From an uncultured Actinomycetes bacterium (GTDB lineage: Bacteria > Actinomycetota > Actinomycetes > S36-B12 > CAIYMF01): a stretch of 64,000 bases of DNA. Location of the stretch: assembly GCA_963700455.1 (NCBI GenBank), contig CAVOXP010000002.1, forward strand, positions 152,011-216,010. The letters run 5' to 3'. This document shows positions 22,937 to 64,000 of this stretch, piece by piece (positions within the stretch are counted from its first letter, which is position 1; the number at the start of each line of letters is the position of its first letter). Under the pieces are notes generated by a model. That model was not told where the DNA came from. It worked only from the letters and a program-made list of their open reading frames with translations, and did not search any database. The position numbers and the translations under genes are program-made.

Positions 22937-25213
<2,277 letters not shown>

Positions 25214-25397
25214 ATCAATCCCTGCCCCGGGCCACCCCGGCCTCACCGCGGCGGGACTGCCGGAGCACCGCACACGCCCGCCCGACGGGCGCACGCCCGT
25301 ACACAGAAACTACACCGATCGGCCGACACCGTCCCCCGCGGTTCGCGAAGGGCGTAGGGAGCCCTTGCCGGACGCGGACGTGGGGCTTGCGGCGGCG

Positions 25398-25418
25398 CGC
25401 GTCGGCTCAGCCGACGCG
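25398..25418. terminator. Perfect 9-bp stem hairpin overlapping the inferred stop of the protease pseudogene
   Basis: CGCGTCGGC-tca-GCCGACGCG, read directly. It lies upstream of ftsH and downstream of the S1-protease remnant. Confidence 0.45.
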
Positions 25419-26509
25419 GGTCGTCGTGCCGCCTTCGCGGCGTCGAAGACCGCCGGGTTTCGGCGTTGAAGACCGGCCCGAACATCGTTCTGTCCCGGAG
25501 TACCCGTAGGAGTTGAGGGAACCGATCTCCCCTCCGCTGTCCGCTCGGCGAAGGCCAGGCGCGGTAGTCGAACCACGGGCCGCCCGACGACCCGCCGGTC
25601 ATGTCGCAGGCCAAGCCGCCAGGTCGTCCGGCCCGGTGTAGCCGTTGTACGGGTCCGTGCGTCCCGCGCCCGAGCAGTAGGTCAGGTCCGCTGCCGTTGT
25701 ACGGCTCGCCGCCGGGTACCCGAAGGCGCTCAGCTGGTCCTTCGCCCGCATCGGCACGTGGCTGAACTCAGCCCGTAGCCGACCGACAGTCGCGTCGAGA
25801 TCCTGCGTCGCCCCGGCCACGCCGCCAGGACCGACGACAGCGACCGCGAAGTCGTGCAGGGTGGCGGCCGTCGTGAAGCCACCCGCCGTGGTGAACCCGT
25901 AGTGCGCGACGAGGGCCGTGGCCGTCCAGCATCCGAACCTCGTCGGCGCGGCAGTGCAGTCGTTCGTGTTGAGGTTCGGCGCGGCGTCGAAGTCGGGATG
26001 AACATCCAGTCAGTGGCGAAGCCGCTCACCCGGTCCGGCTTGGACTCGTCATAGACACAGTGCGCCGCGGTCAGCACCAGCGAGTCGAGTTGGTCGTGTC
26101 GCCGTCGACCACCACCGCGCCGGAGCAGACGCACCCGGAGCCGCCCATCCGGAAGTAGACCTTCCCGGTCCTCTTCGCGACGTCTCCGCCAGCCGTCCAC
26201 GAAGCCCCTGAGGTGCTCGCAATCGTGGATCCCGTGGACCCACCGCCGCCGCCGGGCCTGGCCTTGCGTGCGCTGGCGGCCTTGGCCTGCTTCACCTGAC
26301 GGAACGACCCGTCCGGCATCCGCTCGAAGTCGCGGGGCTTCGCGGCCCTCATCCGCTCGGGGGTCCAGTAGGAAACGATCCGGTCGTGCTCCGCGCGGGC
26401 CACGTCCGCCTTCGACCGGGGCGCGGCCCCGGCAGCGGCAGCCGGGGACGAGGGCGGCGGCGACGAGGGCGCCGGCCAGGAACAGGGAGCGCGCGCGGGA
26501 ATGGGACAT
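25407..26509 (-). pseudogene. Secreted trypsin-like (S1) serine protease, multiply frame-shifted
   Basis: ATG 26507-26509 follows GGAAGG. Signal peptide MSHSRARSLFLAGALVAAALVP. The His motif LVLTAAHCVYDE (frame of ORF 25730..26515), the N-terminal segment HDRIVSYWTPERMRAAKPRDF (ORF 26071..26403) and the Ser motif GGSSGGPWF (ORF 25243..25614) are in different frames, as are GEIGSLNSYGYSG / MFGPVFNAET / AVFDAAKAA. Confidence 0.75.
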
Positions 26510-26653
26510 GTCCAACCTTCCGGGCTCGGGACGCGGTGAGGCTACCCTCCGCCCCGGGTCGGATGTGGTCCGTGCGGACCATCCGGTGCGCCCGATTCGA
26601 CCGATCGGGTGACGGCCCCGATCACGCGCAGTCGTCGAACGGGGTCCCGGGCC

Positions 26654-27205
<552 letters not shown>

Positions 27206-45592: not shown

Positions 45593-47808
45593 TCACGCCG
45601 TGGCAGGGGGGCGCGCGCGGCGAACCAGCAACGCGGCGCGCCTGCGGAGCGCGCGACCAGGGATGAGCTGCACGCGTCCTGAACGACTCGGGGCCAGCAC
45701 CCACCGCCCTCCCGCCCTCAGGGGCAGGGGGCGCGGCGTGGCGAGGTCGACGCGCCCGATGGCGCGCAGCGAACGCCCCAGCCCGAGCGACACCAGCAGC
45801 GGGCCATCCCGGCGCAGGGCGGGGTCGGCCAGTGCGGCAGCGTCCCAGGCAAGGCTCGCGGGGACCACCCAGCACGACTCGAACCAGCGGCCGGGCCCGG
45901 CGGCGCGCAGGGTGCCCACCTGACGTGCGCCGTCCCGGGTCCGCACGGCCACCGGGATGACCGACGCTGCGTCCAGTTCGAGGCCTGCGAGCTCCAGGGA
46001 CAACTCAACGTCGGAGGTCTCAGGGCCGCTGCCGACGAGGCGCGCGCGCATCCGGACCTGCTGGCTGACGACCGTGACGACCTCACCGATCCGGAACGCG
46101 CGCCCCACCCGGCTGGACGTCCAGGACTGCCCGATCCGCGGGTGTCCGACGCGGGACGCCGCCTTCATCCGGGGCGACCATGACCAGGTCCGCGCCGGTC
46201 AGTGCCACGGACACGGGCAGGCCGGGCCCCACCACGGGCACCTCCTGACCCGATCGGACCTCTGCGCGCAGCGCCGCGCCGACCGGCCACCCCCCGACGA
46301 GCGGCCACTGCAGCGTCGCCGTCACATCCCGGGCACCCGAGGATCCCTCGCCGGGCACGAGGTCCGTCCCGGTCTCGGGCCGGCCCTCGATCCCGAGGAT
46401 CACCGGAGCCCTCCCGGGGCCGAGGGCGACGGCGGAGACCTCCAACCCGTCGCGCCGCATGCGGAGGTCCTCGACCAGCAGCGCGCCCGCCGGGACGTGG
46501 ACCCTGCCCGCGACGGCGTCCGCCAGGGCCAGCCACTGGGCGGCGACCGACTCGGGACGCAGGTGCTCCACGGAGGCCGGCCCGGCCGCGGACATGCGCT
46601 GCCAGGCCTGCAGGTCGGTGAGGGCCTCCACGAGCGCAGTGGCGAGCGCGCCGACCGAGCCGTTGCGCACCAGCCGACCGTTGGCGCCGTCGGCCACCAG
46701 TTCGGCGGGGCCGTAGTCGACGTCGTAGGAGACGACCGGCGTGCCCACGGCGAGGCTCTCCGCGACGGCCAGGCCGAAGCCCTCCCTGCGTGAGGTCATG
46801 AGCGAGGCACCTGCGGACGCAAGCACGCGCGCGGGCTCCTCGGTGAACCCCTCGAACGTGACCGCCCCACCGAGGTCCAGCTCGTCGCGCACGGCGATCA
46901 GGCGGTCCAGGTCGGGCCCCCGCCCGTAGACCGCCAGGTGCAGGTCCGGGAGGGACGCGACGAGCCCGCGCGACAGCCCGGATCGCGTGATCGACCCGCT
47001 TGAAGGGGTCGAGACGACCGAGCTGGACCACGAGCATCGGGTCCCGCTGCGGCGGATCCGGCAGGTCCACGGGGTCGAGCATGTTGGGGATGACCGTCAC
47101 CTCGAGACCCGGAACGTCCTGTGCGAGGTGCTCGGCCTGCCGGCGCGTCGGGGCCACGACGGCGTCGGCGGCCGCGGCATAGGGCAGGAACCGGCCGGAG
47201 AGGCTTCGGCGTGCCCGCGGGGCCCTGGTAGATGGACCTCGGGGCCACGACGCCCTCCGCGGTGTCCACCCGGCCGCCGGCCCCGCGGTGGGCCAGGTGC
47301 ACGGTCATCACCTTGCCGACGAAGGGGTTGCGCATCTTCGCGACCGGCGCGTAGGTGACCGGGGAGTCGGCGAACACGACGACGCCCGGCGTGCGGCCCA
47401 CGAGCCAGTCGAGCCAGTCCGCGACGCGGTCGTCGCGCGTGAACGTGCCGTCGGTCTTCCGGCTCCAGGAGGGGCGGAAGCCTCGGTTGCGACGCTGGTA
47501 GTGGTGGACTGACGTCCCGCGGGCAGCCAGCCCCTCGATCGCCAGGCAGCCAGCGTCTCGTCGATCTCCGGCTGCGGGTGGATCGTCGCGATGTGGGTGT
47601 CCCAGCCGGCGTCGTGGAAGACCGCGAGCCGTCGCAGCCAGGCGCGGGTGAGGCCGCCCTTCTGCTCGCGAAGGTTGCTGAAGACGAACAGCGCCACGGG
47701 GCGGCCAGTGAGATCCGGTCGGGTCGGGGGCACGGGGCTGAGGATATCGGCAGCCCATGGTCGGGCCCCGCGACTCCAGCCCGATGTGGTCCCGGGATCG
47801 CGTTCCAA
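45593..47808 (-). pseudogene. Family 4 glycosyltransferase with C-terminal extension, broken into at least five frames
   Basis: Consecutive pieces lie in different frames. N-terminus [23 protein letters not shown] (47308..47808). Then VADWLDWLVGRTPGVVVFADSP (46898..47893 frame). Then QAEHLAQDVPGLEVTVIPNMLD...LGRLDPFKRVDHAI (46165..47157 frame). Then the GT1-type core FEGFTEE..SRREGFGLAVAESLAVGTPVVS (46083..46892). Finally the tail in 45593..46168. Confidence 0.7.
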
Positions 47809-48555: not shown

Positions 48556-49536
48556 TCAGCCGGTGGCGATCAGTGCTCGCCCTCCCGCTGGCGGGGCTGG
48601 TCCCCCGCCTCGGCGGCGATCTCGAGGCTTGCGGGCGTGGTCGGGCACGAATGTCTGGGTGTCGCGGGGCGGCCGGATGTAGCCGGTGGTCGGCGGGCGG
48701 TGCGGCAGGTCGAGCCGCGGCTTGTCGACGTACGTGTACGGGATCGTGCTCAGCAGGTGGTGGATGGCGTTGAGCCGCGCGCGCCGCTTGTCGTCGGACT
48801 CCACCACGTACCAGGGCGCGGTCAGCGTGTCGGTGTGGACGAACATGTCGTCCTTGGCGCGCGAGTAGTCCTCCCAGCGGGTGATCGACTCGAGGTCCAT
48901 CGGCGAGAGCTTCCAGCGGCGCATCGGATCGTCGAGGCGGGAGCGGAAGCGCGCCTCCTGCTCCTCGTCGGAGACGCTGAACCAGTACTTGCGCAGCATG
49001 ATGCCGTCCTCGACCAGCATCCGCTCGAAGATCGGGGCCTGGTGCAGGAACCGCCGGTACTCCTCCGGCGTGCAGAAGCCCATGACCCGCTCGACCCCCG
49101 CCCGGTTGTACCAGGAGCGGTCGAAGAGCGTGATCTCCCCTGCGGCCGGCAGGTGCGGGACGTAGCGCTGGAAGTACCACTGCGACTGCTCGCGCTCGGT
49201 GGGGGCCGGCAGGGCGACGATGCGCGCGACGCGGGGGTTGAGGTACTGGGCGACCCGCTTGATGGTGCCGCCCTTGCCGGCGGCGTCGCGCCCCTCGAAG
49301 ATCACCACGAGCCGCGCCCCGGTGGTGCGCACCCACTCCTGCATCTCGACGAGCTCGGCCTGCAGGCGGAACAGCTCGATCTCGTAGAGCTTCTTGTTCA
49401 CGCGCCTGACCTTGCGGCGCGCGGAGGCCTCCTCGGCCTCGACCGGCTTGCGCAGCGGCGCACCCTCCTCGAGCAGCGCCTCGAACTGCTGGTCGGACAT
49501 CTCCTCGACGTGGGCCTTCTTGCTCTTCTTCGCCAT
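48556..49536 (-). CDS. ppk2: Polyphosphate kinase 2
   Basis: ORF trimmed to MAKKSKKAHVEE (ATG 49534-49536). Walker A FEGRDAAGKGG, lid motif SWYNRAGVERV and RW.LSP.D. Confidence 0.92.
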   Translation of the reverse strand: MAKKSKKAHVEEMSDQQFEALLEEGAPLRKPVEAEEASARRKVRRVNKKLYEIELFRLQAELVEMQEWVRTTGARLVVIFEGRDAAGKGGTIKRVAQYLNPRVARIVALPAPTEREQSQWYFQRYVPHLPAAGEITLFDRSWYNRAGVERVMGFCTPEEYRRFLHQAPIFERMLVEDGIMLRKYWFSVSDEEQEARFRSRLDDPMRRWKLSPMDLESITRWEDYSRAKDDMFVHTDTLTAPWYVVESDDKRRARLNAIHHLLSTIPYTYVDKPRLDLPHRPPTTGYIRPPRDTQTFVPDHARKPRDRRRGGGPAPPAGGRALIATG

Positions 49537-49596
49537 GGGAGGCAGCGTATCCAGCAGACGACGCGGAACCCGCCGCGTGAGTGCGACGATGGGTCC

Positions 49597-50910
49597 ATGG
49601 TTGAGCAGATCCCCCGGGTTCCCGGGCTGCCGGTCCTGGGCAACACCATGGAGTTCCTCCGCGACGCGCGCGGGCTGGTGCTGCGCGGGCAGGCTGCCCA
49701 CGGCGACGCCTTCGGCGTGCAGGTCCTCGGCCAGCCGGTCACGGTGCTGCTGGGCCCGGAGGCGACCCGACAGGTGTACATCGACCGCGCGGAGAACTTC
49801 TCCAGCGAGCTGGGCTGGTCGTTCACGATCGGCCCGCTGTTCGCCCGCGGCCTGATGCTGCGCGACTTCGAGGACCACCGGCTGCACCGACGGGTGATGC
49901 AGCACGCCTTCCGACGGGCGGCCCTCGCCGGCTACATGGAGCGGGTCAACGCCCTGGCCCGCGAGCACGTGGCGGCCGCCGTGGCCAGCGGGGGCCCCGA
50001 CGGGATCGACGTGTACCGGATGACCAAGCGGCTGACGCTGGACATCGCCACCCAGGTGTTCGTCGGCGTCGACCTCGGCCCGCAGGCCGACCTGGTCAAC
50101 GACTCCTTCGTGGCGATGATGCGGGCCTCCGTCTCACCGCTGCGCCGGGACATCCCCGGCACGCCCTACGCCCGTGGGCTGGCAGCCCGCCGCAGGCTCA
50201 CGGGCCTGTTGACCGAGCTGGTCGAGGAACGGCGGGCGCAGCCCGAGGGGGCCGACCTGCTGTCGCGGCTCTGCCACGCGACCACGGAGGACGGTCGGGC
50301 CCTCGAGGTCGACGAGGTGGTCGACCACATGGTCTTCCTGCTGCTCGCGGCGCACGACACGACCACCGCGACGCTGACCGTCATGCTCTGGCACCTGTCC
50401 CAGCAGCCGGCGTGGCAGGAGCGGGTGGCCGAGGAGGCCACCGCCCTGGCTGGTGGCGACGTCACGATCGACAACTACAAGGACCTGGGCGCCACCGAGC
50501 TGGTCATGAAGGAGGCGTTGCGCCTCAGCCCGCCGGTGCCGTTCTCGCCCCGCGGGGTGCTGCGCGACTGCGAGGTCGCCGGCGTGCCCCTGGCCGCCGG
50601 GTCGATGATCACGCTCTCCAGCCTGGGGCTGCACCGGCACCCGGACTGGTGGACCAGCCCCGACGACTTCGACCCCGAGCGGTTCGCGCCCGAGCGCGCC
50701 GAGGATCGCGCGCACTCGCACCTGTACGTGCCGTTCGGCGGCGGGGCGCACATCTGCCTGGGCAACCACCTGGCCGAGCTGATGACCAAGGCGGTCATGG
50801 CCGCCGTGCTCGCCGAGCACCGGGTCGCCGCCCGCCCGGGCCAGCGCATGGAGATGGCGGCGGTGCCGATCCCCAAGCCGCGCGGCGGGCTGGTGCTGAC
50901 CCTGGCGTGA
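49597..50910 (+). CDS. Cytochrome P450
   Basis: ORF trimmed to ATG 49597 (MVEQIPRVPGLPVLGN). ExxR motif (EALRL) and heme-thiolate loop FGGGAHICLG. Confidence 0.92.
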   Translation: MVEQIPRVPGLPVLGNTMEFLRDARGLVLRGQAAHGDAFGVQVLGQPVTVLLGPEATRQVYIDRAENFSSELGWSFTIGPLFARGLMLRDFEDHRLHRRVMQHAFRRAALAGYMERVNALAREHVAAAVASGGPDGIDVYRMTKRLTLDIATQVFVGVDLGPQADLVNDSFVAMMRASVSPLRRDIPGTPYARGLAARRRLTGLLTELVEERRAQPEGADLLSRLCHATTEDGRALEVDEVVDHMVFLLLAAHDTTTATLTVMLWHLSQQPAWQERVAEEATALAGGDVTIDNYKDLGATELVMKEALRLSPPVPFSPRGVLRDCEVAGVPLAAGSMITLSSLGLHRHPDWWTSPDDFDPERFAPERAEDRAHSHLYVPFGGGAHICLGNHLAELMTKAVMAAVLAEHRVAARPGQRMEMAAVPIPKPRGGLVLTLA

Positions 50911-54366: not shown

Positions 54367-54795
54367 TCAGCCATCCACGCGCGGCGTCGGGACAGCGGTG
54401 ATGCGTTCAGTCGCGCTCAGCGGCCTGGCCAGGGACTCGATCGCATCCGTGACCCGCTCGCAGCATCGCCCGTCCCTGGCCGGGAAGGTCGTGCGAATGC
54501 GCTCCAGGTACAAAGGCGACGGGCCAGGCAGGTTCTGCACGGCGGACACGAGGTCGTCGATCGCGGGCTGCAGGTCGTAGGCGACCGGGCCAAGGCCGTC
54601 CCGCTCGTACTTGAAGTAGCCACCCCGCCCCACGTGGCCGCCGCCGAACATTGCCTCGGCGTCGAACTGGAAGTACGTCACCGCGCGCTCGAGGTATGCG
54701 GCGTTGAACGCCATGGAGGAGTAGTCAGTGGTCAGCACGGCGGATCGGGCGAAGTAGGAACGAACGTCCTGACCCTCGTACCTAGCGGCACACAT
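54367..54795 (-). pseudogene. Remnant: C-terminal third of a TagF-type CDP-glycerol glycerophosphotransferase
   Basis: The 142-aa ORF holds only the C-terminal family motifs (AVLTTDYSSMAFNAAYLERAVTYFQFD, RGGYFKYE..GLGPV). The N-terminal 250+ codons are absent, and the ORF ends 52 nt from the tRNA 3' end. Confidence 0.65.
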
Positions 54796-54847
54796 GCAGC
54801 GACCCCGGACCCCTGCTGGGGGAACCGGGGCCTGACCTGCGCCGATA

Positions 54848-54922
54848 TGGAGCCGCCTCGGGGATTTGAACCCCGGACCTACGCATTACGAGTGCGTTGC
54901 TCTACCCCTGAGCTAAGGCGGC
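54848..54922 (-). tRNA. tRNA-Thr (anticodon CGT), CCA encoded
   Basis: Cloverleaf folded by hand. Acceptor GCCGCCT/AGGCGGC, D arm GCTC/GAGC, anticodon stem ACGCA/TGCGT with loop CTCGTAA, T arm CGGGG/CCCCG with loop TTCAAAT, then discriminator T and CCA. Confidence 0.95.
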
Positions 54923-55056
54923 GCACGTCCAGGCGAGCCATGGACGGAGCAATGGTACCGGCGGCCCCGGCACGACCCAACACAAGCGGGCAAGTTGACA
55001 TGAGTCATCAGGAACCAGCCTCCTGGGGAAACGCGAGGGGCTACTAGGCTCGTCGG

Positions 55057-55662
55057 GTGGAGATTCATGAGATGGGCATCGCGGGGGCGTGGGTCATCAC
55101 GCCGACTCTGCACACGGATGACCGAGGCACCTTCCTTGAGTGGTTCAGGGAAGAGCGGTTTCTCATCAGCGTGGGCCGACCCTTCCACGCAACTCAGGCC
55201 AACTGCTCGATCAGTCACCGGGGCGTGGTTCGCGGCGTGCACTACACCGCGGTCCCCCCAGGACAGGCCAAGTACGTCACGTGCGTGCAGGGATCGGTGC
55301 GCGATGTGGTCGTTGACCTGCGCGAGGGATCCGCAACGTTCGGCCGCTGGGAGGCGTTGACCCTCGACGCCAGGGACAGGCGCGCCGTGTTTCTCGAGGC
55401 CGGCCTTGGACACGGGTTCTCAGTGACCAGCGAACAGGCCACCGTGGTCTACATGGTCGACAGGGGGTACGACCCGGCCCACGAGCGCGCCATCCACCCC
55501 CTTGACCGCGACCTAGGTATCGACTGGGGACTGCCCCATCCGCCGGTCCTTTCAGAGCGGGACTCTTGTGCCCCGAGCCTCGCGGGCGCCAGAACGGATG
55601 GGCATCTGCCCCTCTGGGACGCGTGCCTACGACGGGCATCGGGAGGCGCGGGTACGTTCTAG
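55057..55662 (+). CDS. rmlC: dTDP-4-dehydrorhamnose 3,5-epimerase
   Basis: 201 aa. Cupin motifs DDRGTFLEWF, RGVHY, QAKYVTCVQG and GHGF. GTG at 55057, or ATG at 55072. Confidence 0.9.
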   Translation: MEIHEMGIAGAWVITPTLHTDDRGTFLEWFREERFLISVGRPFHATQANCSISHRGVVRGVHYTAVPPGQAKYVTCVQGSVRDVVVDLREGSATFGRWEALTLDARDRRAVFLEAGLGHGFSVTSEQATVVYMVDRGYDPAHERAIHPLDRDLGIDWGLPHPPVLSERDSCAPSLAGARTDGHLPLWDACLRRASGGAGTF

Positions 55663-55802
55663 CGGTATGGGGTGCCCGAAACCGCGTGGAAGCCATCCGA
55701 TTGAGTTATCTCGCACACCCGTCGCCGGTCGTGCTCTTTCGGCCGACGTCCCCCTTGCAGGAGGACCAGACGCCTTCCCACCTCAGCGATATGGGCTAGT
55801 CG

Positions 55803-57195
55803 ATGGGCCTGAGATCTCGCCTCACAGCCCAGAGTCGGCGCGCGTTGGTGGTTTTGTCGGTCGGCCTGTCCACCTGCCTTCTCCTGACGGCGGGACACCC
55901 CGGCTGGATGACGAATGACTCCCGAATCATGCTCTCGCATGCGACCGGTGCGGCGCCCTTCAGCGATTGGTACGTGCCCACCCTGGAGTGGCTGTGGGGC
56001 CATCTCGGAGCTGGCGCAAAGGGGTCCCCTCATCCCACATGCGCTGCAGGTGCTGACGTACTCACTCGGGATCCTCGTGGCGAGTACACATCTCGCCGCG
56101 CGCCATTTCGGGTGGGCCGTTGCTCTCCCTTGGCTTATGCTCCTCAATCCCGCGACGTGGATCCTGCATTTCGTATGGCGCGATGCATTCATGGCCTCGG
56201 TTCTGGTGCTTTGCGGTAGCCCTTGGACTCCATCTCAGGCATGCCTCCCCGTCTCGGGTGCGCCTCCTCGCATACTCGCCGGCGGTCCTCTGCGGCATCG
56301 CTGCCGTGGCGCGGCCGTACCTGCTTCCCTTCATGATGATCCTGGCCTTCGCGCTGACGCCTGAGTGGCAACGCCACTCCTGGCCACGCGGGCCAGCCGT
56401 GGGAGCCTTGGCCGCGGCCTTCACCGGCGCCCTACTCGCCATCGCCCTCCCGAGACTGTTGATTCCCGACATCGAGTCGTCCCGAGCGGGGGAAGCAGTC
56501 TTCGCCCTGGACGCACTCCACATCGATTGCGAGTACTCTTGGGCGTCCTTGGACAGGCCACGTTCGCCAGTGTCGCCTCCAGGCTTGTGGCGAGACGACA
56601 CCCCTCCTTGCGAGAATACGAGGCCGGGCGATTTCGGTGGCGCTTGGGAGGCCTACGGGGATCCCAATGGACCCGCTGCCCTGGACCTTGCAGGATGGCG
56701 GGCGCTGGCCGTCGCGCATCCGGCGACGGTGGTAGGCGGGCGGAATGCAGCACACCCTTCTCCTTCTCAGGGAACCACTCGACGCGCGATGGGCGCCGGA
56801 TGTTGAGTCACGGCCGCTTCTCAGCACCCCAGGCGCCATCGGAGATGGAGAACTCGTCGGGTACCCGAGCGAGGGCGGCGTGGCCATCGTCGCGTTGGCG
56901 GGACTCACAATCCTGGCACCCCAATCCGCGATCTGGTGGCTCGCTAGGTGCCGGGCTCCTGGGCTTGGCTGGATTCTGGCGTCAGCAGGTCGACGCCATG
57001 ACGCTCCTCGTCTCGTGGTGGCCACTGTTGACCGCGTTGGTGACCGGAGTCCTGGCCCCTGCGAATGATCCCCGATACATGGCGCCATTCTCGATCCTCG
57101 CATGGCTGGTGACGCTCATCCTGGGACCCCGGATCTGGAAGGCGTGGCGCGACCAGACAGGCAACCCAGCCAGCTCAGTCGCATCTCCTGACTAG
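55803..57195 (+). pseudogene. Polytopic membrane protein (GT-C / polymerase-like), frame-broken
   Basis: Hydrophobic segments continue across four overlapping ORFs in different frames (55803..56219, 55915..56364, 56120..56806, 56365..57195, plus 56745..57068). The function assignment is tentative. Confidence 0.5.
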
Positions 57196-58310
57196 CGCAT
57201 GACTCGTCCGAACAACTCCTCCCAACTATCGAGCACCAATCCGGGGCTGAACGTTGCCGCGTCACGGCGCGCCTGCTGTCCAAGCCGCGCGCGCAGATCA
57301 GAATCGCTCATCACCTGCGCCAAAGCGCTTGCCAGATCCTCCTCGCTGTTCGGCCGCACCAGACGGCCGTTCTCGCCATCGCGTATCAGGCTACGCACAC
57401 CCGGCGAGCAGTCGAAGGCGACGGAAGGAACGCCGCACGCCATGGCCTCCAGCACAGTCATCGGAAGCCCTTCGTATTGGCTCGTCAAGGCGAATACGCT
57501 AGACAGAAGGAGGACGTCCTCCATATCGACCGTGGGGCCATTGAGAGTGACGGAGCCCTCGATTCCCAGCCTCCGAGACCAACTGCCGGTAGTTGCCCTC
57601 TTCGGGGCCGTTGCCGTGCAGTTCGAGGCGCCAGTCAGGGAACTGGTCAGCGATGCGGCTCAACCGCGAATCAGGTAGTCCGGGGACTTCTCCGCGTGGT
57701 AGCGCCCCGCGTACGTAACGGTCTTCGAAGTCAGTTGGGCTGAGCGTTCGGGATCCATCCCGACTGGATTGCGCATCACATCTGTGTTGTTCAGGCCCAC
57801 TCTACGTAGCTCATTTGCGTCCTCATCCGTCAGGAGAAGGCATCTGTCGCAGTCGCGCGCCCAAGCCTTCAGCCGAGGGGCATCCCGGCGCCCGAGGGGG
57901 CTCAACACGGTGCTGTGGTATTCGGCAATGGTTCGCCAGCCCTGTGCCCCTGCCCGGTACAGGTGCTTGAGTGCGAACAGTTGCATGCCGACAACGATCC
58001 CCGGCGTGTGGAACTTCAGCAGGTCACGCAGCCGAGCAACGGCGACGTCCTGAGCCTTCTCGTGCTCTGCCGGAGGTGCCGCCTCGTCTGGGCGCTCACA
58101 GAGGTACTCCACCCTGTATGCCGGATCCGACTCGTACTGATGCACGTGGGACGGCTTGAAGACGCCGAGAAGCATGACGGGGTAGCCCCGCTGTGCCAAC
58201 CCTTGGCCGATCAAATGGGCCACCCGCTGGACCCCGCCCACCTCCATCACATCGTTGGCGAACAGGATGACATTGGGAACCGGGCCCTGACCGAACACCC
58301 CATCAGCCAT
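57192..58310 (-). pseudogene. Family 4 glycosyltransferase with at least two frameshifts
   Basis: N-terminus MADGVFGQGPVPNVILFANDVMEVGGVQRV (lower part of ORF 57660..58976). Middle piece IADQFPDWRLELHGNGPEEGNYRQLV in a third frame (57540-57650). C-terminus SQYEGLPMTVLEAMACGVPSVA in ORF 57192..57524. Confidence 0.7.
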
Positions 58311-59564
58311 TGAGGAACACCTCCTCCACGACCCGGCGGGACGCCTGACCGTCTTCGCGCCCCCCGAACTCCAGACCGAACGCGCGCCTCGCCGCTGCGA
58401 AGGCTCCACTCCACTCCTTGGCTGAGAACACAAGATCCCACAGCTCGTCCGGAGTTCTTGCGATTGGCCCTGGAGCCCACTGCGCAAGATCGAAGTAGCC
58501 GCCGCGAGCCATGGACACTCCTTGTAATCGGGAACGAACAGGACGATCGGTCGGCCAAGTTCCAGGTAATCGAACATGATCGAGGAGTAGTCGGTCACCA
58601 GCACGTCACTGGCCAGCATCGCGGCGACCGGGTCGAACACCTTGCCCGCATCGACTAACACGTGACCGAAACCCTGCGGAATCGTCACATTGTTCAGGTA
58701 GTGAGGACGGATGAGCAGTCGCCCCCGCCCTTCAAACTGCTCCATAGCGGATTCCAGCGTGAACGGCAGCCCAACTTCTGCCCCCGCGTGACCCTGATGC
58801 TCCCTGAATGTGGGCGCGAAGAGAGCGTGTATGCCCACAGCCGGGTCCTGAGGGAGTCCGATCGCGGCGTCGTCGGCGGCCGTTCGCTGGGTGCCGCGCC
58901 GCGCCACAAGTGGGTCAACGCGAGGAGTGCCAGGTCCAAGCGCCCGAGCATGATGAGGGAATGCGCGCTCGAACACGGTCTTGAAGTACTCCCCCGGCGC
59001 TTAACGAGGAAGTCCCACCGATCAGAAGCCGCCACGAGCCTGTGGCGCTGTTCGGTGCTCTCCGAGACTGAAGACTTGTCCAGACCCATCCGCTTGTAGG
59101 GGATACCGTGCCAGGTCTGGACATAGGTCGTCCCCGGGGGCTTTCGGATGTGAGCGGGATCCCTTGGTTGTCCACCCAGTAACGTGCGCTCCCAAGCGCC
59201 TTGTAGTAGTCCCGCGACCCCCTCAGGACGGTCTCAACGCCTTCTGGGAATCCGCTGCCGATGCGGTCACGAACCCACACGGTCTCGCCCGACCAGTCCG
59301 AAGCCGCAAGGGCCTCGTATATGTAGCGTGGACTATCCGAGTACGTCCTTCCCACGTGGACTCGAACACGACGAGGGGAGGTCCACTCAGGCGCCTCCGC
59401 CGCTTCGCCACCGCATCACCCGCGCGCTGCTGGGATCGCCGGACAACCCGCGCCTGCCGACTGCGGGCAGCCCTCGCGGCGCCGCGCTGGAGCACGAGCC
59501 TGCCGTCCCCTGGGGCGTGCAAGGCATGCAGGGCCAAGTGGTCGTCCAGCGTCCGGTAGGGCAT
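58303..59564 (-). pseudogene. TagF-type CDP-glycerol glycerophosphotransferase with at least four frameshifts
   Basis: The pieces are FESTWEG (59223..59564), GRTYSDSPRYIYEAL...YWVDNQG (58915..59355) and TWHGIPYKRMGLDKS (58694..59089). They continue with LASDVLVTDYSSIMFDYLELGRPIVLFVPDY (upper part of 57660..58976) and GGYFDL..APGPI (58303..58518). Confidence 0.7.
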
Positions 59565-61084
59565 CAGTCCCGACGGATCCGGCAGGCAGGTGGGGCGCTC
59601 TCCACCTCGACGGGGCGAAGGTCGACAGTCCCGTCAGGCCTTGGATAGCGAAGAGGTTGCCGGTTCTCGACGGATAGGCCAACGGCCTTCACTCGAATCC
59701 AGAAATCGAACCTCTGGTCCTTGGTGAACTCATCCCAGACGAACGAGTGACAGTTCAAAGTGAACCGAGTCCCGATGCTGTACTCGTCGCGGCCGATGGA
59801 CTCACCACGAATGGTCACCCCCTGCCCGCCTGACCCTCGTCGTGATACCTCGAGGAAGATCCCGTAATCGTCCCCAATCAAGCCAAGGGGATTCCATGTC
59901 CTCAGTGACAGGGCCACCTCGGTCGCCGATACCTCCCAAGCTGTGACCTCATGAGTGAGGGTGACCTGACCCAAGGGGCGCCGACCGAATCCGATATCCG
60001 TGATGTCGAGGCTGGCCCGGACAATCCCCGCACTGAGTTGTGCACCGGACCAGTACACCCGCCCAGCTCGGGAGGCCAGGTCGACTGCCGCTTCGCCTCG
60101 TACGATCGCCCCGTAGACGGCACGAATCTGATCCAAATCCCCCACATCCAGCATCTCCAGCGCCAATTGGTGGAGCCTCGGCAAACGGTCCCTCTTCAAC
60201 CCAGGGAGGGCTCGACAGACGGCTGGAATGCAGACACGACGGTCCGGCCCCACTCATCGCCCGCCGAAAGGAGGTCGCCAAGGTAGAGTGCCAAGTCGTG
60301 CCGCACAAACTTCTCCTGTTTTGCAGGCAATAGATCGGCATTCCCCGAGTCCACGAGCCACTGGTCGATCAACCGGTGGGGTTTCGATCCGTGCCTCGAG
60401 GTTTCGCACCGTCATGCGACTGTTGGTGATCGAGCGATTCTCCCGAGTTTCGTAGACTTTCCACAGGTAGACGTGCTCCGGGATGACGGCTAGGCGAGTG
60501 ACACTGCTGTAGACCTGGGCTGTCCACAACAGATCCTCGTACAGGATGCCCTCACAAAAGGAGAGGCCCAGACGAGCAATGAATGCCCGTCGGTACAGCT
60601 TCCCCAACTGCCGCCGTCTCAAACAGTCTTTCCGGCTCATCGCGGATGGAGGTGACGAACTGGCATGACTCGAAAAAGGCGCACGTATCAACCCGACCCC
60701 ACTGCCTGCGCTCGACGTGGTTGGCGAGACCTTGCCAGCGCACCACCTCCGCATCCGTCGCTCGCCCTCCTCGAGAAGCCGCTTCGTGGCGTGCATGTGA
60801 GCTTCGTCGTCGCTGTCGAGGAAGGTCACCCACGGAGCGCGCGCGGCCGCCGTACGGCGTTGCGGGGGGCGCTACAGCCGCCGCTGTTCTGAGGAAGCCG
60901 GAGGTCAGCGCACCCGTGGATCAAGTTCGACCAGCCCGCGCGCGACGGCCTCCGTGTCATCCGTGGGCAGTCATCGCAGATGGATCACCTCCAGCGACGC
61001 AGCGTCTGCGACAGGGCGCTTCGTAGGCTGTGGGAAGCCGATGGCGTCGTTGCACAGGATGATCACCACGCTGACGTCTGGCAC
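59564..61084 (-). pseudogene. Family 2 glycosyltransferase plus C-terminal beta-rich domain, frame-broken in the GT2 part
   Basis: Reading down from 61084, the GT2 motifs are spread over all three frames: VSVVIILCN, LEVI, ICDDC, TDDTEAVA..DPRVR, LPQNSGG.SAPRNA, WVTFLDSDDE and LYRRAFI...EGILYEDL. The C-terminal 229-aa part (59564..60253) is intact. ATGA overlap with the TagF-type gene. Confidence 0.6.
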
Positions 61085-61310
61085 ACGATCTGCGACCGGT
61101 GGCTGCGAGACGTCAATCTGGGACCTGTGAGGCTGCTCGCTCAGTGACGATCACCGGGGCTGCCGCAGGGGCGGACTTCCCGGGGGACAGCAATTCAGAC
61201 ACGTCCTTTCAATCGGGCGGCATCAATGGGACAAAGTGGACCACGCCCCATTGAAAAGGCTGCCCGAGCCTACCGATCCTCCTCCTGGTGCGGAGTCGAG
61301 GCGGTGATGT

Positions 61311-62972
61311 TCAGTCGCAGCTACAGCTCGGCCCCCCTCGTGGCTGGGAGTGCGCATTGGCCGCGCGTCGCGCATCCAGGGACTCTGCCCTCCTCAAGGC
61401 GTATCGACTCAGGCCCAAACACCCCGACTTGAGTCCATCCAGACTCCTCGGCAGTCGCCTCCACCCACTCCCCCCCGGCGTCCTTCGGCCCCATAGAAGG
61501 GTCGTACTCGTCGGTCCAAGCTCCTCCGCTACGCACACCCATTCGATCCCGCTGCGGTGAGATGGCTCCCATAAGGCCGGACAACTGATGGCGCCACGCG
61601 GCTCTGCCCCGCCGGCCCGCTGGGAAGGTTTGACGAGCCGCACGGCGATCGACAGCGACGTGCCATCGGGGAATCCGGCCAACGCCGTCATGACCTCTCG
61701 GCGAGTCCATGCGCCCAGTCCAGTGTCAAGCACATGCCGCGCGTAGATGTGCGGAGGCCGATCCAGTCCCTTGGCCAACTCCGCGAGGTACATGAGGCCT
61801 CGAGGGTCCGCGATGTCCATCCGCACGAACGAAACGCCCGCTCGGGGAAACTCGAGTGGCCCCGGGGGCATGTGAGGAAGTCCGTGGCCAACACTGGGAA
61901 CCCACATGACGCAAGGAACCGAGCGTCGGCACCACTTCCGCAGCCCAACTCAAGGACTGTTGTGCCCGCGGGGGAGTAACCTCGCCACCCAGCGGGCAGA
62001 ATCCGACACTGGAGGGTCAGTTGCCCGGGAATGATCGTAGGCGTCACTCCAATACTCGAAACCGTCCAAGTACTGACCGAACCAGGCGGAGAAGCGCAGC
62101 TGCGTTGAGCGGGGGGTCCTGAGTACGTGTCCCGGCTGGGGCGTCCTCCAACTTGGGCCGTAGTTGAGTCTGAGCCAGGCAGTGACATTCCTTGGCGCCG
62201 GGAATCGAACTCCGCTGATCTCGACCTCTCCAAGCGGGAGCAGCTGCCCATGACGGAGACGCCCCCGCACATGGAACGGCTGGTTGATGACGCCACGACG
62301 GAAGAACGCGCTGAAGACGTCTATATGGATGGGCGGTCGCCCATCGACCCTAGGTTCCTTCACCTGAAAGTGTGCCCCCGAGAATCGGCGTGACGGCCAT
62401 CCTGCTTCAACGAAGCGTCTCTCCAGCGGGAAGCTTTCCAGCGCCACCCGTCCGGTCGACTCGACGTCGCCAGATACGCGAGATCAAGGTCATCGTCGTG
62501 TGGGATCAACCCCTGGGCCCGGACCGCACCGAGCAGAGTCCCACCGACGATCCACGCGGGCGCTCGCGGCCGCCCCACCTTGGAATCGCTCTCCGCGTCT
62601 CCAATCGCCCTGTTCAACTCGGATTGGTGCTTCGGCGAACGGAAGGCCCCACCATCCCCACTTGTTGAGGGTCAGTCCACGGCCCCACGTATCGGTTGGT
62701 CGCTGCCAGGACTGGTGCCCGCCGAAGTCATGCTGCGTCTCTCGAATGGTTGGACCGCCACTGACCTCAACGAGCCCCACCCGAGTCGGGCCGAGATCGG
62801 GCAATCGACGCGAGTGCGCCCGGCCACACAACGCTCCTGCGGCCGGAGCGGAAACGGCCGATTGGGAAGAAGGTCGCCGGTCGAGGGCGACCCAGACATC
62901 GTCGCGAACGTGCCGATCCAAAGTGAGGCCATGCGCGCCAACCACCAGGCCCATTTGCCGTCGCCCGTTCAT
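61311..62972 (-). pseudogene. LicD-family phosphotransferase joined to a class I SAM methyltransferase, frame-broken
   Basis: LicD motifs are GGTLLGAVRAQGLIPHDDDLDLAYL (62360..62617) and PIHIDVF...NYGPSWRTP (61950..62447). Methyltransferase motif I is VLELGCGSGADARFLASCGFPVLATD (61688..62296), with the remainder in 61311..61907. The N-terminal 120 codons are unassigned. Confidence 0.6.
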
Positions 62973-63090
62973 AACCCTCCTCCAGCGGCTCCTTCGATCG
63001 GCGCCTTAGGTCGGCCCGATCAGTAAAGCAGCCATGTATCCATGCCGATGCTGTGGGGAAGGACTGTGCTGGCGACGAAGGATTCGGCTG

Positions 63091-64000
63091 ATGGGCATGC
63101 GATGGCGGGCGAGCCAGGACCCGGCGGCCTTGAGGAGGTTCACGGTCCTGATCTCAGCCGCCGTGGGCCTTGCTGTCATTGCTGCCGCCCCCGGCGCTCC
63201 TGCCGACGCCTCCCCCGCGCCTCGTACGAACACGGTCGCAGTCGCACCGCAACCCGCCTCAGCTGCGGCAGTCTCGGTCGCACCGCAACCGAGGTCCGCC
63301 GGGACGTCCGGATGCGCGTCTACGTCAAGATCCGGTCCAAGCTCAAGCGGGGCCGCTCGGCCACCGTCACGCTCTCGGCCCGGCGCAGCGGATCGTCGTC
63401 CTATGCGGCACAGGTGACATTCTCGGGTCGAACGGCCAAGCTCCAACGCCTCGCCTACGACTCAGCGGGTGTCGTCACGAAGATGGGTGGACCGGTCACC
63501 CTGGTCACGAAGGTGAAGCCACGCCAGAAGGTCTACCTGGAGTTCGAGGCAGTCGAGGTCAGCGGCGGGACGCGCCTGCGTGTGCGGGGCTGGCGAGCAG
63601 ACAAGTCGGTCACCACCCGCGAGTGGATCGACCTGCGCTCGGCCCGCCCAACCCAGGCGGGCACGACCGCCGTGACAGTCACCCGCACCAAGAAGGTCGG
63701 CAAGCCGAAGGTGCGCCAGCTGTCCGTGGCCCAGCCAACGGCGACGGCCGTGTCCCCGGCCCCCACGGCGACCCCTGTGAACCTGCCACCGAACCCCGAC
63801 GCAGGTCACTACGGCTGGACCGGGAAGGTCGCCCAGGTCCTGGATGGGGATACGGTCGCCGTCTACCTGGACGCCAACCCCACGAAGGCCGTCCAGGTGC
63901 GCAACGCCGGCATCCAGGCGATGGAGGTCGACGAGTGCAACGGGCCGAGCGCCACCAGGGCCATGGCGGATCTCGCCCCCGCGGGCAGCCGGGTCCTGCT
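63091..64000 (+). pseudogene. Secreted protein with C-terminal staphylococcal-nuclease-like domain, probably frame-shifted; runs off the window
   Basis: The signal peptide MGMRWRASQDPAALRRFTVLISAAVGLAVIAAAPGAPADA is in the frame of ORF 63034..63417. From about 63300 the sensible translation is in another frame that is open to the window end (VRMRVYVKIRS...GKVAQVLDGDTVAVYLD...VRNAGIQAMEVDE). The last part matches the SNase pattern V.DGDT..V...VRL.GIDAPE. Confidence 0.5.

Follow-up and report, generated by a model that had tools for sequence, protein, structure and literature searches.

Frame breaks in a cell-wall glycopolymer gene cluster beside tRNA-Thr(CGT) of an uncultured actinobacterium: gene decay or consensus error?

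When nearly every gene of a wall-polymer cluster is out of frame, has the cluster been lost or has it been misread? The question is raised by the last part (54367-64000) of a 64,000-nt stretch of an uncultured Actinomycetes genome (GenBank assembly GCA_963700455.1, contig CAVOXP010000002.1, positions 152,011 to 216,010), which we refer to as the window. Beside a gene for tRNA-Thr(CGT) the window carries a run of genes resembling those for a teichoic-acid-type wall glycopolymer, in which most reading frames are interrupted. An earlier reading, made from the letters alone (the sequence-only reading), took this run for a horizontally acquired tRNA island that had been inactivated wholesale and recently, mainly by indels. 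Comparison with an intact copy of the cluster suggests that the apparent wholesale inactivation is more likely an artefact of sequence quality than biology. The segment itself is the strain-variable cell-wall glycopolymer locus of this lineage of uncultured high-GC actinobacteria, situated beside tRNA-Thr(CGT).

The frame breaks and an intact copy of the cluster

The intact copy was found in other metagenomes. With the longest open reading frame (ORF) of the segment as query, we recovered a Joint Genome Institute (JGI) metagenome protein (P0001) whose identity to the GT4 portion of the query sequence is 92%. Fragments of the membrane protein, joined into one query, led to a second protein (P0151), whose contigs (L062-L065) carry the whole cluster in open frames. 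Five JGI contigs from five samples (L001 and L062-L065) share the same gene order, have every frame open and are 100% identical to one another. In the window's orientation the order on L062 is tRNA-Thr, rmlC, a GT2 of 340 aa, a membrane protein of 419 aa, a GT4 (372 aa), a GT2 fused to a Glyphos_transf domain (928 aa; the GT2-TarF gene below), a 552-aa protein (the LicD-methyltransferase gene) and a Lamin-Tail-Domain (LTD) protein. Positions 2422-10753 of L062 align with 55674-64000 of the window at 90.8% identity. With these contigs, open frames are available from an independent assembly of a closely related population, but not of this genome.

Lesions were called by nucleotide alignment of the window to L062. 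The global alignment contains about 41 indels, which span 56013-63763; 36 of these break a reading frame, all within 56013-63279. Thirty frame-breaking indels are 1 nt long (15 insertions and 15 deletions), five are 2 nt and one is 4 nt; insertions and deletions are equally frequent (18 events each), with a net change of -2 nt. More than half (20) lie in the GT2-TarF gene, and the others are in the LicD-methyltransferase gene (six), the membrane-protein gene (four), the GT4 gene (two), the LTD gene (one) and intergenic DNA (three). All of the broken genes are otherwise full length and no deletion is longer than 4 nt. The frame hops counted in the sequence-only reading do exist in the sequence as given; its figure of two for GT4 is exact, but the total is higher than it had allowed.

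The same alignment bears on three gene junctions that had been read as surviving operon architecture. Both the 8-nt overlap at 58303-58310 and the convergent CTAG overlap at 57192-57195 are true gene boundaries in the relative. The third, an ATGA stop/start overlap at 59562-59566, is not a junction between genes; it is the product of a 2-nt (CG) insertion at 59571, which converts ...GGA CTG ATG CCC... into a stop followed by ATG.

Outside this region the window reads cleanly. Between 55.7 and 63 kb the ORFs are short and the phase of GC content at third codon positions (GC3) jumps between frames; in the remaining 54 kb they are long and high in GC3, with a maximum length of 967 aa. Core-gene integrity was judged by Pfam completeness, a GC-periodicity hidden Markov model for frameshifts having been dropped as too crude. 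Pfam domains are complete in the small core genes that were scanned (folB, folK, DUF3180, PPK2, acs and GNAT), and the fol operon and the other core genes checked in the first 54 kb are intact, with long frames and, where scanned, full Pfam domains. Because the core ORFs are long and their domains complete, the fragmentation is local to this region and real in the given sequence.

The relationship between the two copies is not uniform. Homology to L062 starts abruptly at window position 55674 (L062 2422), inside the gene for the 340-aa GT2 (L062 1525-2547) and 125 nt before its stop. The window thus has only a 3' tail of about 125 nt of this gene (55674-55799, + strand) and the rest of it is absent. 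The intact protein matches the NCBIfam models for AglJ, dolichyl-phosphate hexose transferase and PpgS, which suggests a GtrB-type synthase of polyprenyl-phosphate sugars. The 55674 junction marks a recombination or deletion breakpoint. The window rmlC is only 56% identical in protein sequence to that of L062 and is therefore a different allele. A metagenome search with the window rmlC gave relatives of at most 58% identity, and neither this allele nor the junction between rmlC and the membrane-protein gene was found.

Beyond the breakpoint, identity to the JGI contigs is mosaic: it reaches about 99.5% over 58-60 kb, is near 90% in the other parts of the island and drops to about 79% in the LTD flank (63400-64000). 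Either recent recombination or a consensus that is a chimera of two strains is indicated. The synonymous divergence (dS) from L062 is 0.13-0.23 in the island and 0.50 in the 775 nt of the flanking LTD gene that lie inside the window. The lower values in the island suggest that the cluster was exchanged between lineages more recently than their core genes diverged. Taken together, these data indicate that the window has a recombinant, mosaic version of a cluster that is intact in a related population.

Origin of the frame breaks

Two explanations carry most of the weight. According to the first, the roughly 36 indels are errors of the consensus in a poorly supported, strain-shared stretch. Such errors would arise in a long-read or strain-collapsed metagenome assembly where support is poor; as the tract is 90-99.6% identical to a co-occurring relative, reads of both lineages would cross-map to it. 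Indel errors that stem from collapsed alleles and from low depth are on record (PMC8445201), and low depth leads to frameshifts in Nanopore metagenome genomes (bioRxiv 10.64898/2026.04.03.716430, on Pelagibacter; PMC9262707). According to the second, the cluster has undergone genuine recent pseudogenisation: recombination swapped rmlC and deleted the GtrB-like GT2, and the remaining genes of a pathway that had become useless then gained neutral indels. On balance, and with modest confidence, we infer that the first explanation holds. The second is possible, but we regard it as clearly the less probable of the two.

The sizes of the indels speak for consensus error. In the natural pseudogenes of Burkholderia leaf-nodule symbionts, 131 of 396 deletions are 1 nt long, 44% are at least 4 nt and the mean is about 19 nt (PMC6054270). 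Under that spectrum the chance that all 22 deletions seen here would be 4 nt or shorter is about 3e-5. The Burkholderia pseudogenes are like the genes of the window in having several indels per gene, mostly outside homopolymers, and about as many insertions as deletions. They differ in that the window has no long tail of deletions and no deletional bias, nonsense changes are nearly absent, the nonsynonymous substitution rate relative to the synonymous one (dN/dS) is like that of the flank and the lesions are strongly clustered.

The substitutions tell a similar story. Only one nonsense substitution, at 60690, was found in the island. Indels make up 2-12%, and at most 26%, of spontaneous mutations (PMC8717266), so that 36 natural indels would imply about 100-260 neutral substitutions and, with 3.3% of these creating stops, three to nine nonsense changes. 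The four island genes have dN/dS values of 0.16 (GT4), 0.23, 0.26 and 0.41 (LicD-methyltransferase), against 0.23 in the largely intact LTD flank gene. As the sequence-only reading had noted, catalytic motifs are still legible; they are intact in the GT4 and GT2-TarF genes, which keep dN/dS at 0.16-0.26, and this argues against decay of these two genes. The raised value for the LicD-methyltransferase gene is what pseudogenisation would predict.

The distribution of the lesions is also hard to reconcile with neutral decay. Fourteen of the 36 lie within 520 nt (60599-61118), where the density of substitutions is ordinary (P ~1e-6). In two near-identical blocks, which were selected after the data had been seen, indels are as numerous as substitutions (4:4 in 58.8-60.0 kb and 7:7 in 60857-61060). 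Additionally, the tract of lesions (56013-63279) coincides in extent with the sequence whose identity to L062 is at least about 90%, and it extends into the LTD flank gene, so that an otherwise conserved gene outside the cluster has been hit once as well. Circumstantially, error is also favoured by the nearest relatives being MAGs (metagenome-assembled genomes), of which many were assembled from Nanopore reads only (PMC12313526).

The lesion spectrum as a whole, with its small sizes, single nonsense change, flank-like dN/dS and clustering, is better matched by consensus error than by natural decay. Of the features that characterize natural pseudogenes, frame lesions relative to an intact orthologue are present, but relaxed selection and a long deletion tail with net loss of DNA are not seen. 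The local excess of indels over substitutions in closely matched sequence, which characterizes consensus error, is seen. Published assemblies with indel errors (PMC12007338, PMC8445201, PMC9262707) likewise have small indels without matching substitution damage in genes of full length, and their errors are concentrated at low depth or where similar alleles have collapsed. They differ from the present case in that here the breaks form one 7.3-kb tract, with one other broken gene, in an otherwise clean 64-kb window, and most of them lie outside homopolymers. The earlier claim of wholesale and recent inactivation, mainly by indels, thus stands as regards the lesions, which are almost purely small indels, but the inactivation itself is doubtful. 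If the indels are consensus errors, the genes of the cluster are probably not pseudogenes. The loss of the GtrB-like GT2 and the truncation of a TagF-like gene at the tRNA (described below) are real structural remnants.

Several observations weigh against consensus error. Over the whole island there are about 41 indels to about 740 substitutions, a ratio that is unremarkable and lies within natural bounds (PMC8717266), and the neutral time permitted by the nonsynonymous divergence (dN) could give about 10-25 natural indels. The breaks are limited to a dispensable accessory cluster, with more than 50 kb of neighbouring genes intact. The GtrB-like GT2 of the intact cluster is truly missing from the window, and with it gone the other genes may no longer have been under selection. 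Both the tail of this gene and the 3' fragment of the TagF-like gene (54370-54855) are real remnants of the kind that pseudogenisation leaves. A further glycosyltransferase gene, GT4b, is broken too, which would be expected from low coverage of accessory DNA and equally from a biological loss of genes for wall glycans. Finally, natural pseudogene indels also lie mostly outside homopolymers and about half of the insertions among them are non-duplicative (PMC6054270).

Two lines of evidence were dropped for these reasons. The deletions in the window fall in runs of 1-3 bases, as does the background, with only one site in a run of six, and 9 of the 15 insertions are non-duplicative. Since natural pseudogene indels are alike in this respect, homopolymer and duplication context was not retained as evidence for error. 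The indel-to-substitution ratio of the whole island was dropped on calculation, leaving the local ratios, the clustering, the sizes and the deficit of nonsense changes as the abnormal features.

The indels could also be real and come from a localized process that produces almost nothing but indels, for example end-joining on imported DNA, which would silence genes fast and leave substitutions nearly untouched. We consider this very improbable. In its specific form, more improbable still, the indels would be scars of error-prone end-joining of the Ku/LigD type after repeated double-strand breaks in the imported DNA, such as restriction attack might cause. Indels of 1-4 nt that are often non-templated, lie outside homopolymers and are confined to a recently exchanged tract are compatible with this, and error-prone break repair has been discussed as a source of small pseudogene indels (PMC6054270). 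However, inspection of 26 listed indel contexts gave no common recognition motif, such repair would usually be lethal or accompanied by larger deletions, and consensus error accounts for the spectrum more simply. We know of no precedent for end-joining scars of this kind.

Surface-polysaccharide genes are classic phase-variable loci, but switching of the polymer genes by slipped-strand mispairing or programmed frameshifting can be dismissed, as switching at every one of some 36 sites, with as many as 20 in a single gene, is impossible and their sequence context, with a single site in a 6-base run and the others in runs of 1-3 as in the background, shows no slippery-site pattern.

If the breaks are assembly errors, as we favour, then strain-variable glycan loci that are common to co-occurring lineages are places where the metagenome consensus fails, and false "pseudogene islands" would distort the envelope losses deduced for uncultured bacteria. 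The biology that would remain is a conserved variable glycan locus by tRNA-Thr, an intact reference cluster of the TarF type and a membrane-protein family that has not been described before and is possibly GT-C-like. If, on the other hand, the breaks are real, a wall polymer has been caught very shortly after its loss.

A variable glycan locus beside tRNA-Thr

The lower GC content of the segment, which had been estimated from single lines of sequence, is borne out by the complete profile. In 1-kb bins GC is 0.67-0.78 (mostly 0.70-0.77) over 1-54 kb and 0.63-0.66 over 55-63 kb, and in the last kb it is back at 0.69. The tetranucleotide distance to the 1-54 kb profile is 0.035 for the 56-64 kb chunk, in comparison with 0.007-0.013 for 8-kb chunks of the core. 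The cluster is compositionally foreign relative to the rest of the 64-kb window, within which its status as an outlier was judged. ARAGORN and Rfam (RF00005, 71.6 bits) place the tRNA-Thr gene (anticodon CGT) at 54848-54922 on the - strand, exactly where the sequence-only reading had put it. It is 98.7% identical to the tRNA of L062 (120-194), and the Rfam scan of the window gave no other RNA gene.

A position beside a tRNA gene suggested a tRNA-targeted mobile island, and we have rejected this. No integrase or recombinase domain was found among the island ORFs or the intact relative that were scanned against Pfam, and a repeat search of 54.3-64 kb gave no repeat of the tRNA end and no att-like repeat. 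The cluster lies on the 5' side of the minus-strand tRNA gene and not on its 3' side, and the adjacency of rmlC and tRNA-Thr is conserved in relatives. The proposal of a horizontally acquired tRNA island therefore holds for horizontal exchange, which is supported by the dS values and the 99.5% block, but not for insertion targeted to the tRNA.

The comparison with relatives was made through the flanking genes. The nearest genomes by the flanking acs gene are all metagenome-assembled genomes (MAGs) labelled Nanopelagicales or uncultured Actinomycetes, with acs at most 84% identical, and many of them belong to the Nanopore-only Microflora Danica set (PMC12313526). Related MAGs share acs-PPK2-orf-AI-2E synteny on one side. 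A contig search with the AMIN-like flank protein gave no match, and exact look-ups of four window proteins (rmlC in two start variants, acs and a helicase) matched no contig of the index. In three related MAG loci tRNA-Thr(CGT) is on the same side of acs as in the window (L002 2364-2437, L003 8977-9051 and L007 3125-3197), and in none of them is the site empty. Other polysaccharide genes fill it: rmlC and rmlB in L002; rmlA/B/D, a GT2, RgpF and a DegT aminotransferase in L003; and rmlC, a UDP-sugar dehydrogenase and a UDP-GlcNAc 2-epimerase in L007. The sequence-only reading had called for comparison of this tRNA-Thr locus in relatives; the site is the same and the polysaccharide genes differ, with rmlC kept next to the tRNA in L002 and L007. 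In L007 GC is 0.64-0.66 past rmlC, at the far end of the locus (positions 1-2000), and about 0.69-0.70 elsewhere.

The differing glycan genes in relatives, together with the lack of an integrase or att repeat, make this a conserved variable glycan locus and not a mobile island. A constant position, different glycan genes and a GC content below that of the flanks, all features of a hypervariable surface-glycan locus, are found, the first two across the three related loci compared and the third in the window and in L007. The fixed position at a tRNA, changing gene content, GC below the flanks and mosaicism are also known from O-antigen and capsule loci and from Pelagibacter, which has a tRNA-anchored, low-GC polysaccharide hypervariable region (bioRxiv 10.64898/2026.04.03.716430). 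In contrast with the Pelagibacter region, the present locus has a tRNA on one side only, belongs to a soil-type, high-GC actinobacterial lineage and has been compared across three related loci.

On the other side of tRNA-Thr is the 3' remnant of a TagF/TarF-like glycerophosphotransferase gene (54370-54855, - strand; ORF 54367-54795). Only profile positions 259-366 of 367 of PF04464 are matched, and NCBIfam gives a partial TarF match. A tblastn search with protein P0007 placed its residues 221-352 at 54855-54439, reaching the 3' end of tRNA-Thr, and found no N-terminal part of the gene nearby. The GC3 of this remnant (0.83) is core-like, and it suggests an older rearrangement on this side of the tRNA.

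Genes of the cluster and a possible polymer pathway

Genes were assigned from Pfam, NCBIfam and PDB searches, and these identify the whole list that had been proposed from the sequence (rmlC, a polytopic membrane protein, GT4, a TagF-type enzyme, GT2, and LicD with a methyltransferase). The searches also support the view that it is a toolkit for a teichoic-acid-type wall glycopolymer. The gene nearest the tRNA, rmlC (55072-55662, + strand), encodes dTDP-4-dehydrorhamnose 3,5-epimerase and is intact, matching the whole PF00908 profile at 193 bits. It is the only unbroken gene of the cluster, as had been claimed. Its score against NCBIfam TIGR01221 (150.5 bits) is slightly below the cut-off of 155.75.

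The polytopic membrane protein (55929-57195, + strand) has about nine hydrophobic helices and its gene is interrupted by four 1-nt insertions, at 56013, 56209, 56744 and 56943. Its homologues have about 50 additional N-terminal residues, and the true start is probably some 50 codons upstream of the one called. Upstream of the start that was called, the consensus of the family alignment shows the motif WPGWxSxDS...DWHSP, of which only the P and G columns reach 90% conservation. The protein matches no Pfam or NCBIfam model, and none of the 46 representative relatives recovered in an exhaustive search has a Pfam domain. An AlphaFold (AF2) model of it (pLDDT 92) gave only weak matches in Foldseek, to ArnT, EmbB, AglB and PimE (E 0.03-2, TM 0.26-0.38), all of which have the GT-C fold. 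The protein belongs to an undescribed family, which from the modelled fold is possibly GT-C-like.

The gene for the GT4 glycosyltransferase (57192-58310, - strand) was delimited by tblastn with P0001 and by DNA alignment to L001 and L062. It has Glyco_transf_4 and Glycos_transf_1 domains, and its two lesions lie at 57570 (+1) and 57661 (-1).

Next to it the "GT2" and "TagF" genes of the sequence-only reading prove to be one. The intact relative and all homologues have a single bifunctional gene here (58303-61084, - strand), encoding an N-terminal GT2 and a C-terminal CDP-glycerol glycerophosphotransferase of the TagF/TarF type (PF04464). Homologues of 925-965 aa align colinearly with four frame blocks of the window, and the protein is colinear over its entire length with 30 homologues. 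A frameshift-aware profile alignment built on 22 distant homologues recovers a single colinear gene of 930 aa, with 15 shifts and no in-frame stops, which is why we treat the two as one gene. In the intact relative PF04464 is matched over profile positions 13-366 of 367 (261 bits); in the window the match is colinear but split across frames -2, -1, -3 and -2. The 928-aa protein also matches NCBIfam TarF over 357 residues, in addition to its GT2 domain.

The 552-aa protein of the relative, encoded at 61323-62972 (- strand) in the window, is assigned by Pfam and a PDB search as a LicD/fukutin-related phosphotransferase joined to an S-adenosylmethionine (SAM) methyltransferase. Its Pfam matches, to LicD and Methyltransf_23, are weak; the PDB sequence search gave fukutin-related protein 6kaj (E = 4.9e-7), which has the LicD fold, and SAM methyltransferases. 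When this gene formed part of a composite search query it gave no word-sharing homologues. Besides its six frame-breaking indels it has one 3-nt deletion.

The last gene is the 5' part of a gene for a secreted LTD protein (63226-64000, + strand), which runs off the window and corresponds to L062 9981-11723, where the Pfam LTD domain is found. It has a GC3 of 0.84, and a 1-nt deletion at 63279 splits the signal-peptide region from the remainder. The deletion lies in a short repetitive stretch (63235-63290), where two copies of a 20-nt repeat, 36 nt apart, encode VAVAPQP and VSVAPQP in the LTD N-terminus.

From what is known of these families, a pathway can be proposed. The GT2-TarF-like enzyme would build a glycosyl-glycerol-phosphate chain on a lipid carrier from CDP-glycerol and a nucleotide sugar. 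The GT4 and the LicD/FKRP-like phosphotransferase-methyltransferase might add or modify sugars and phospho-substituents, and rmlC would help to supply dTDP-L-rhamnose. In the intact cluster the GtrB-like GT2 would load a sugar onto polyprenyl phosphate, and from there the GT-C-like membrane protein would pass the sugar to the polymer outside the membrane. Two-component extracytoplasmic glycosylation modules, made up of a GtrB/CsbB-type polyprenyl-phosphate sugar synthase and a GT-C membrane transferase (YfhO, ArnT), resemble the intact relative, which pairs the AglJ/GtrB-like GT2 with an adjacent membrane protein of about nine helices. This membrane protein differs in its weak fold match (E at least 0.03, TM 0.26-0.38) and in belonging to no described family, and the window is without the GT2 partner.

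The cluster also resembles actinobacterial clusters of the wall teichoic acid type, such as those encoding the bifunctional GT2/TagF-TarF proteins of Streptomyces. The likeness extends to the accompanying GT4, LicD-family and rhamnose-pathway genes. However, identity to the named homologues is 28-39%, and in the window the gene lies in several frames. None of TagD/TarD, TagO, TagA, TagGH and an LCP ligase was found in the 12.7-kb L062 contig or among the scanned island ORFs, so that the designation "teichoic acid" is one of resemblance.

Elsewhere in the window, a second GT4-type glycosyltransferase gene, GT4b (46086-47570, - strand), lies in DNA of core GC content, in a segment that is missing from the related MAG loci. 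It is split over three frames by shifts near 46960 and near 47200-47275. As the frameshift-aware alignment to distant homologues over-called shifts in this gene, only the first of these is regarded as robust. The adjoining fasciclin gene is intact.

Two minor features of the core were also noted. About 1.5 kb of the window (25191-26659) is without the strong GC3 periodicity of the neighbouring genes, and its sole ORF (25730-26515, - strand, with a TTG start) has no match in Pfam or Rfam. The PPK2 polyphosphate kinase (48559-50133, - strand) has an N-terminal extension of about 245 residues before its catalytic domain, which aligns poorly and is of variable length among related MAGs.

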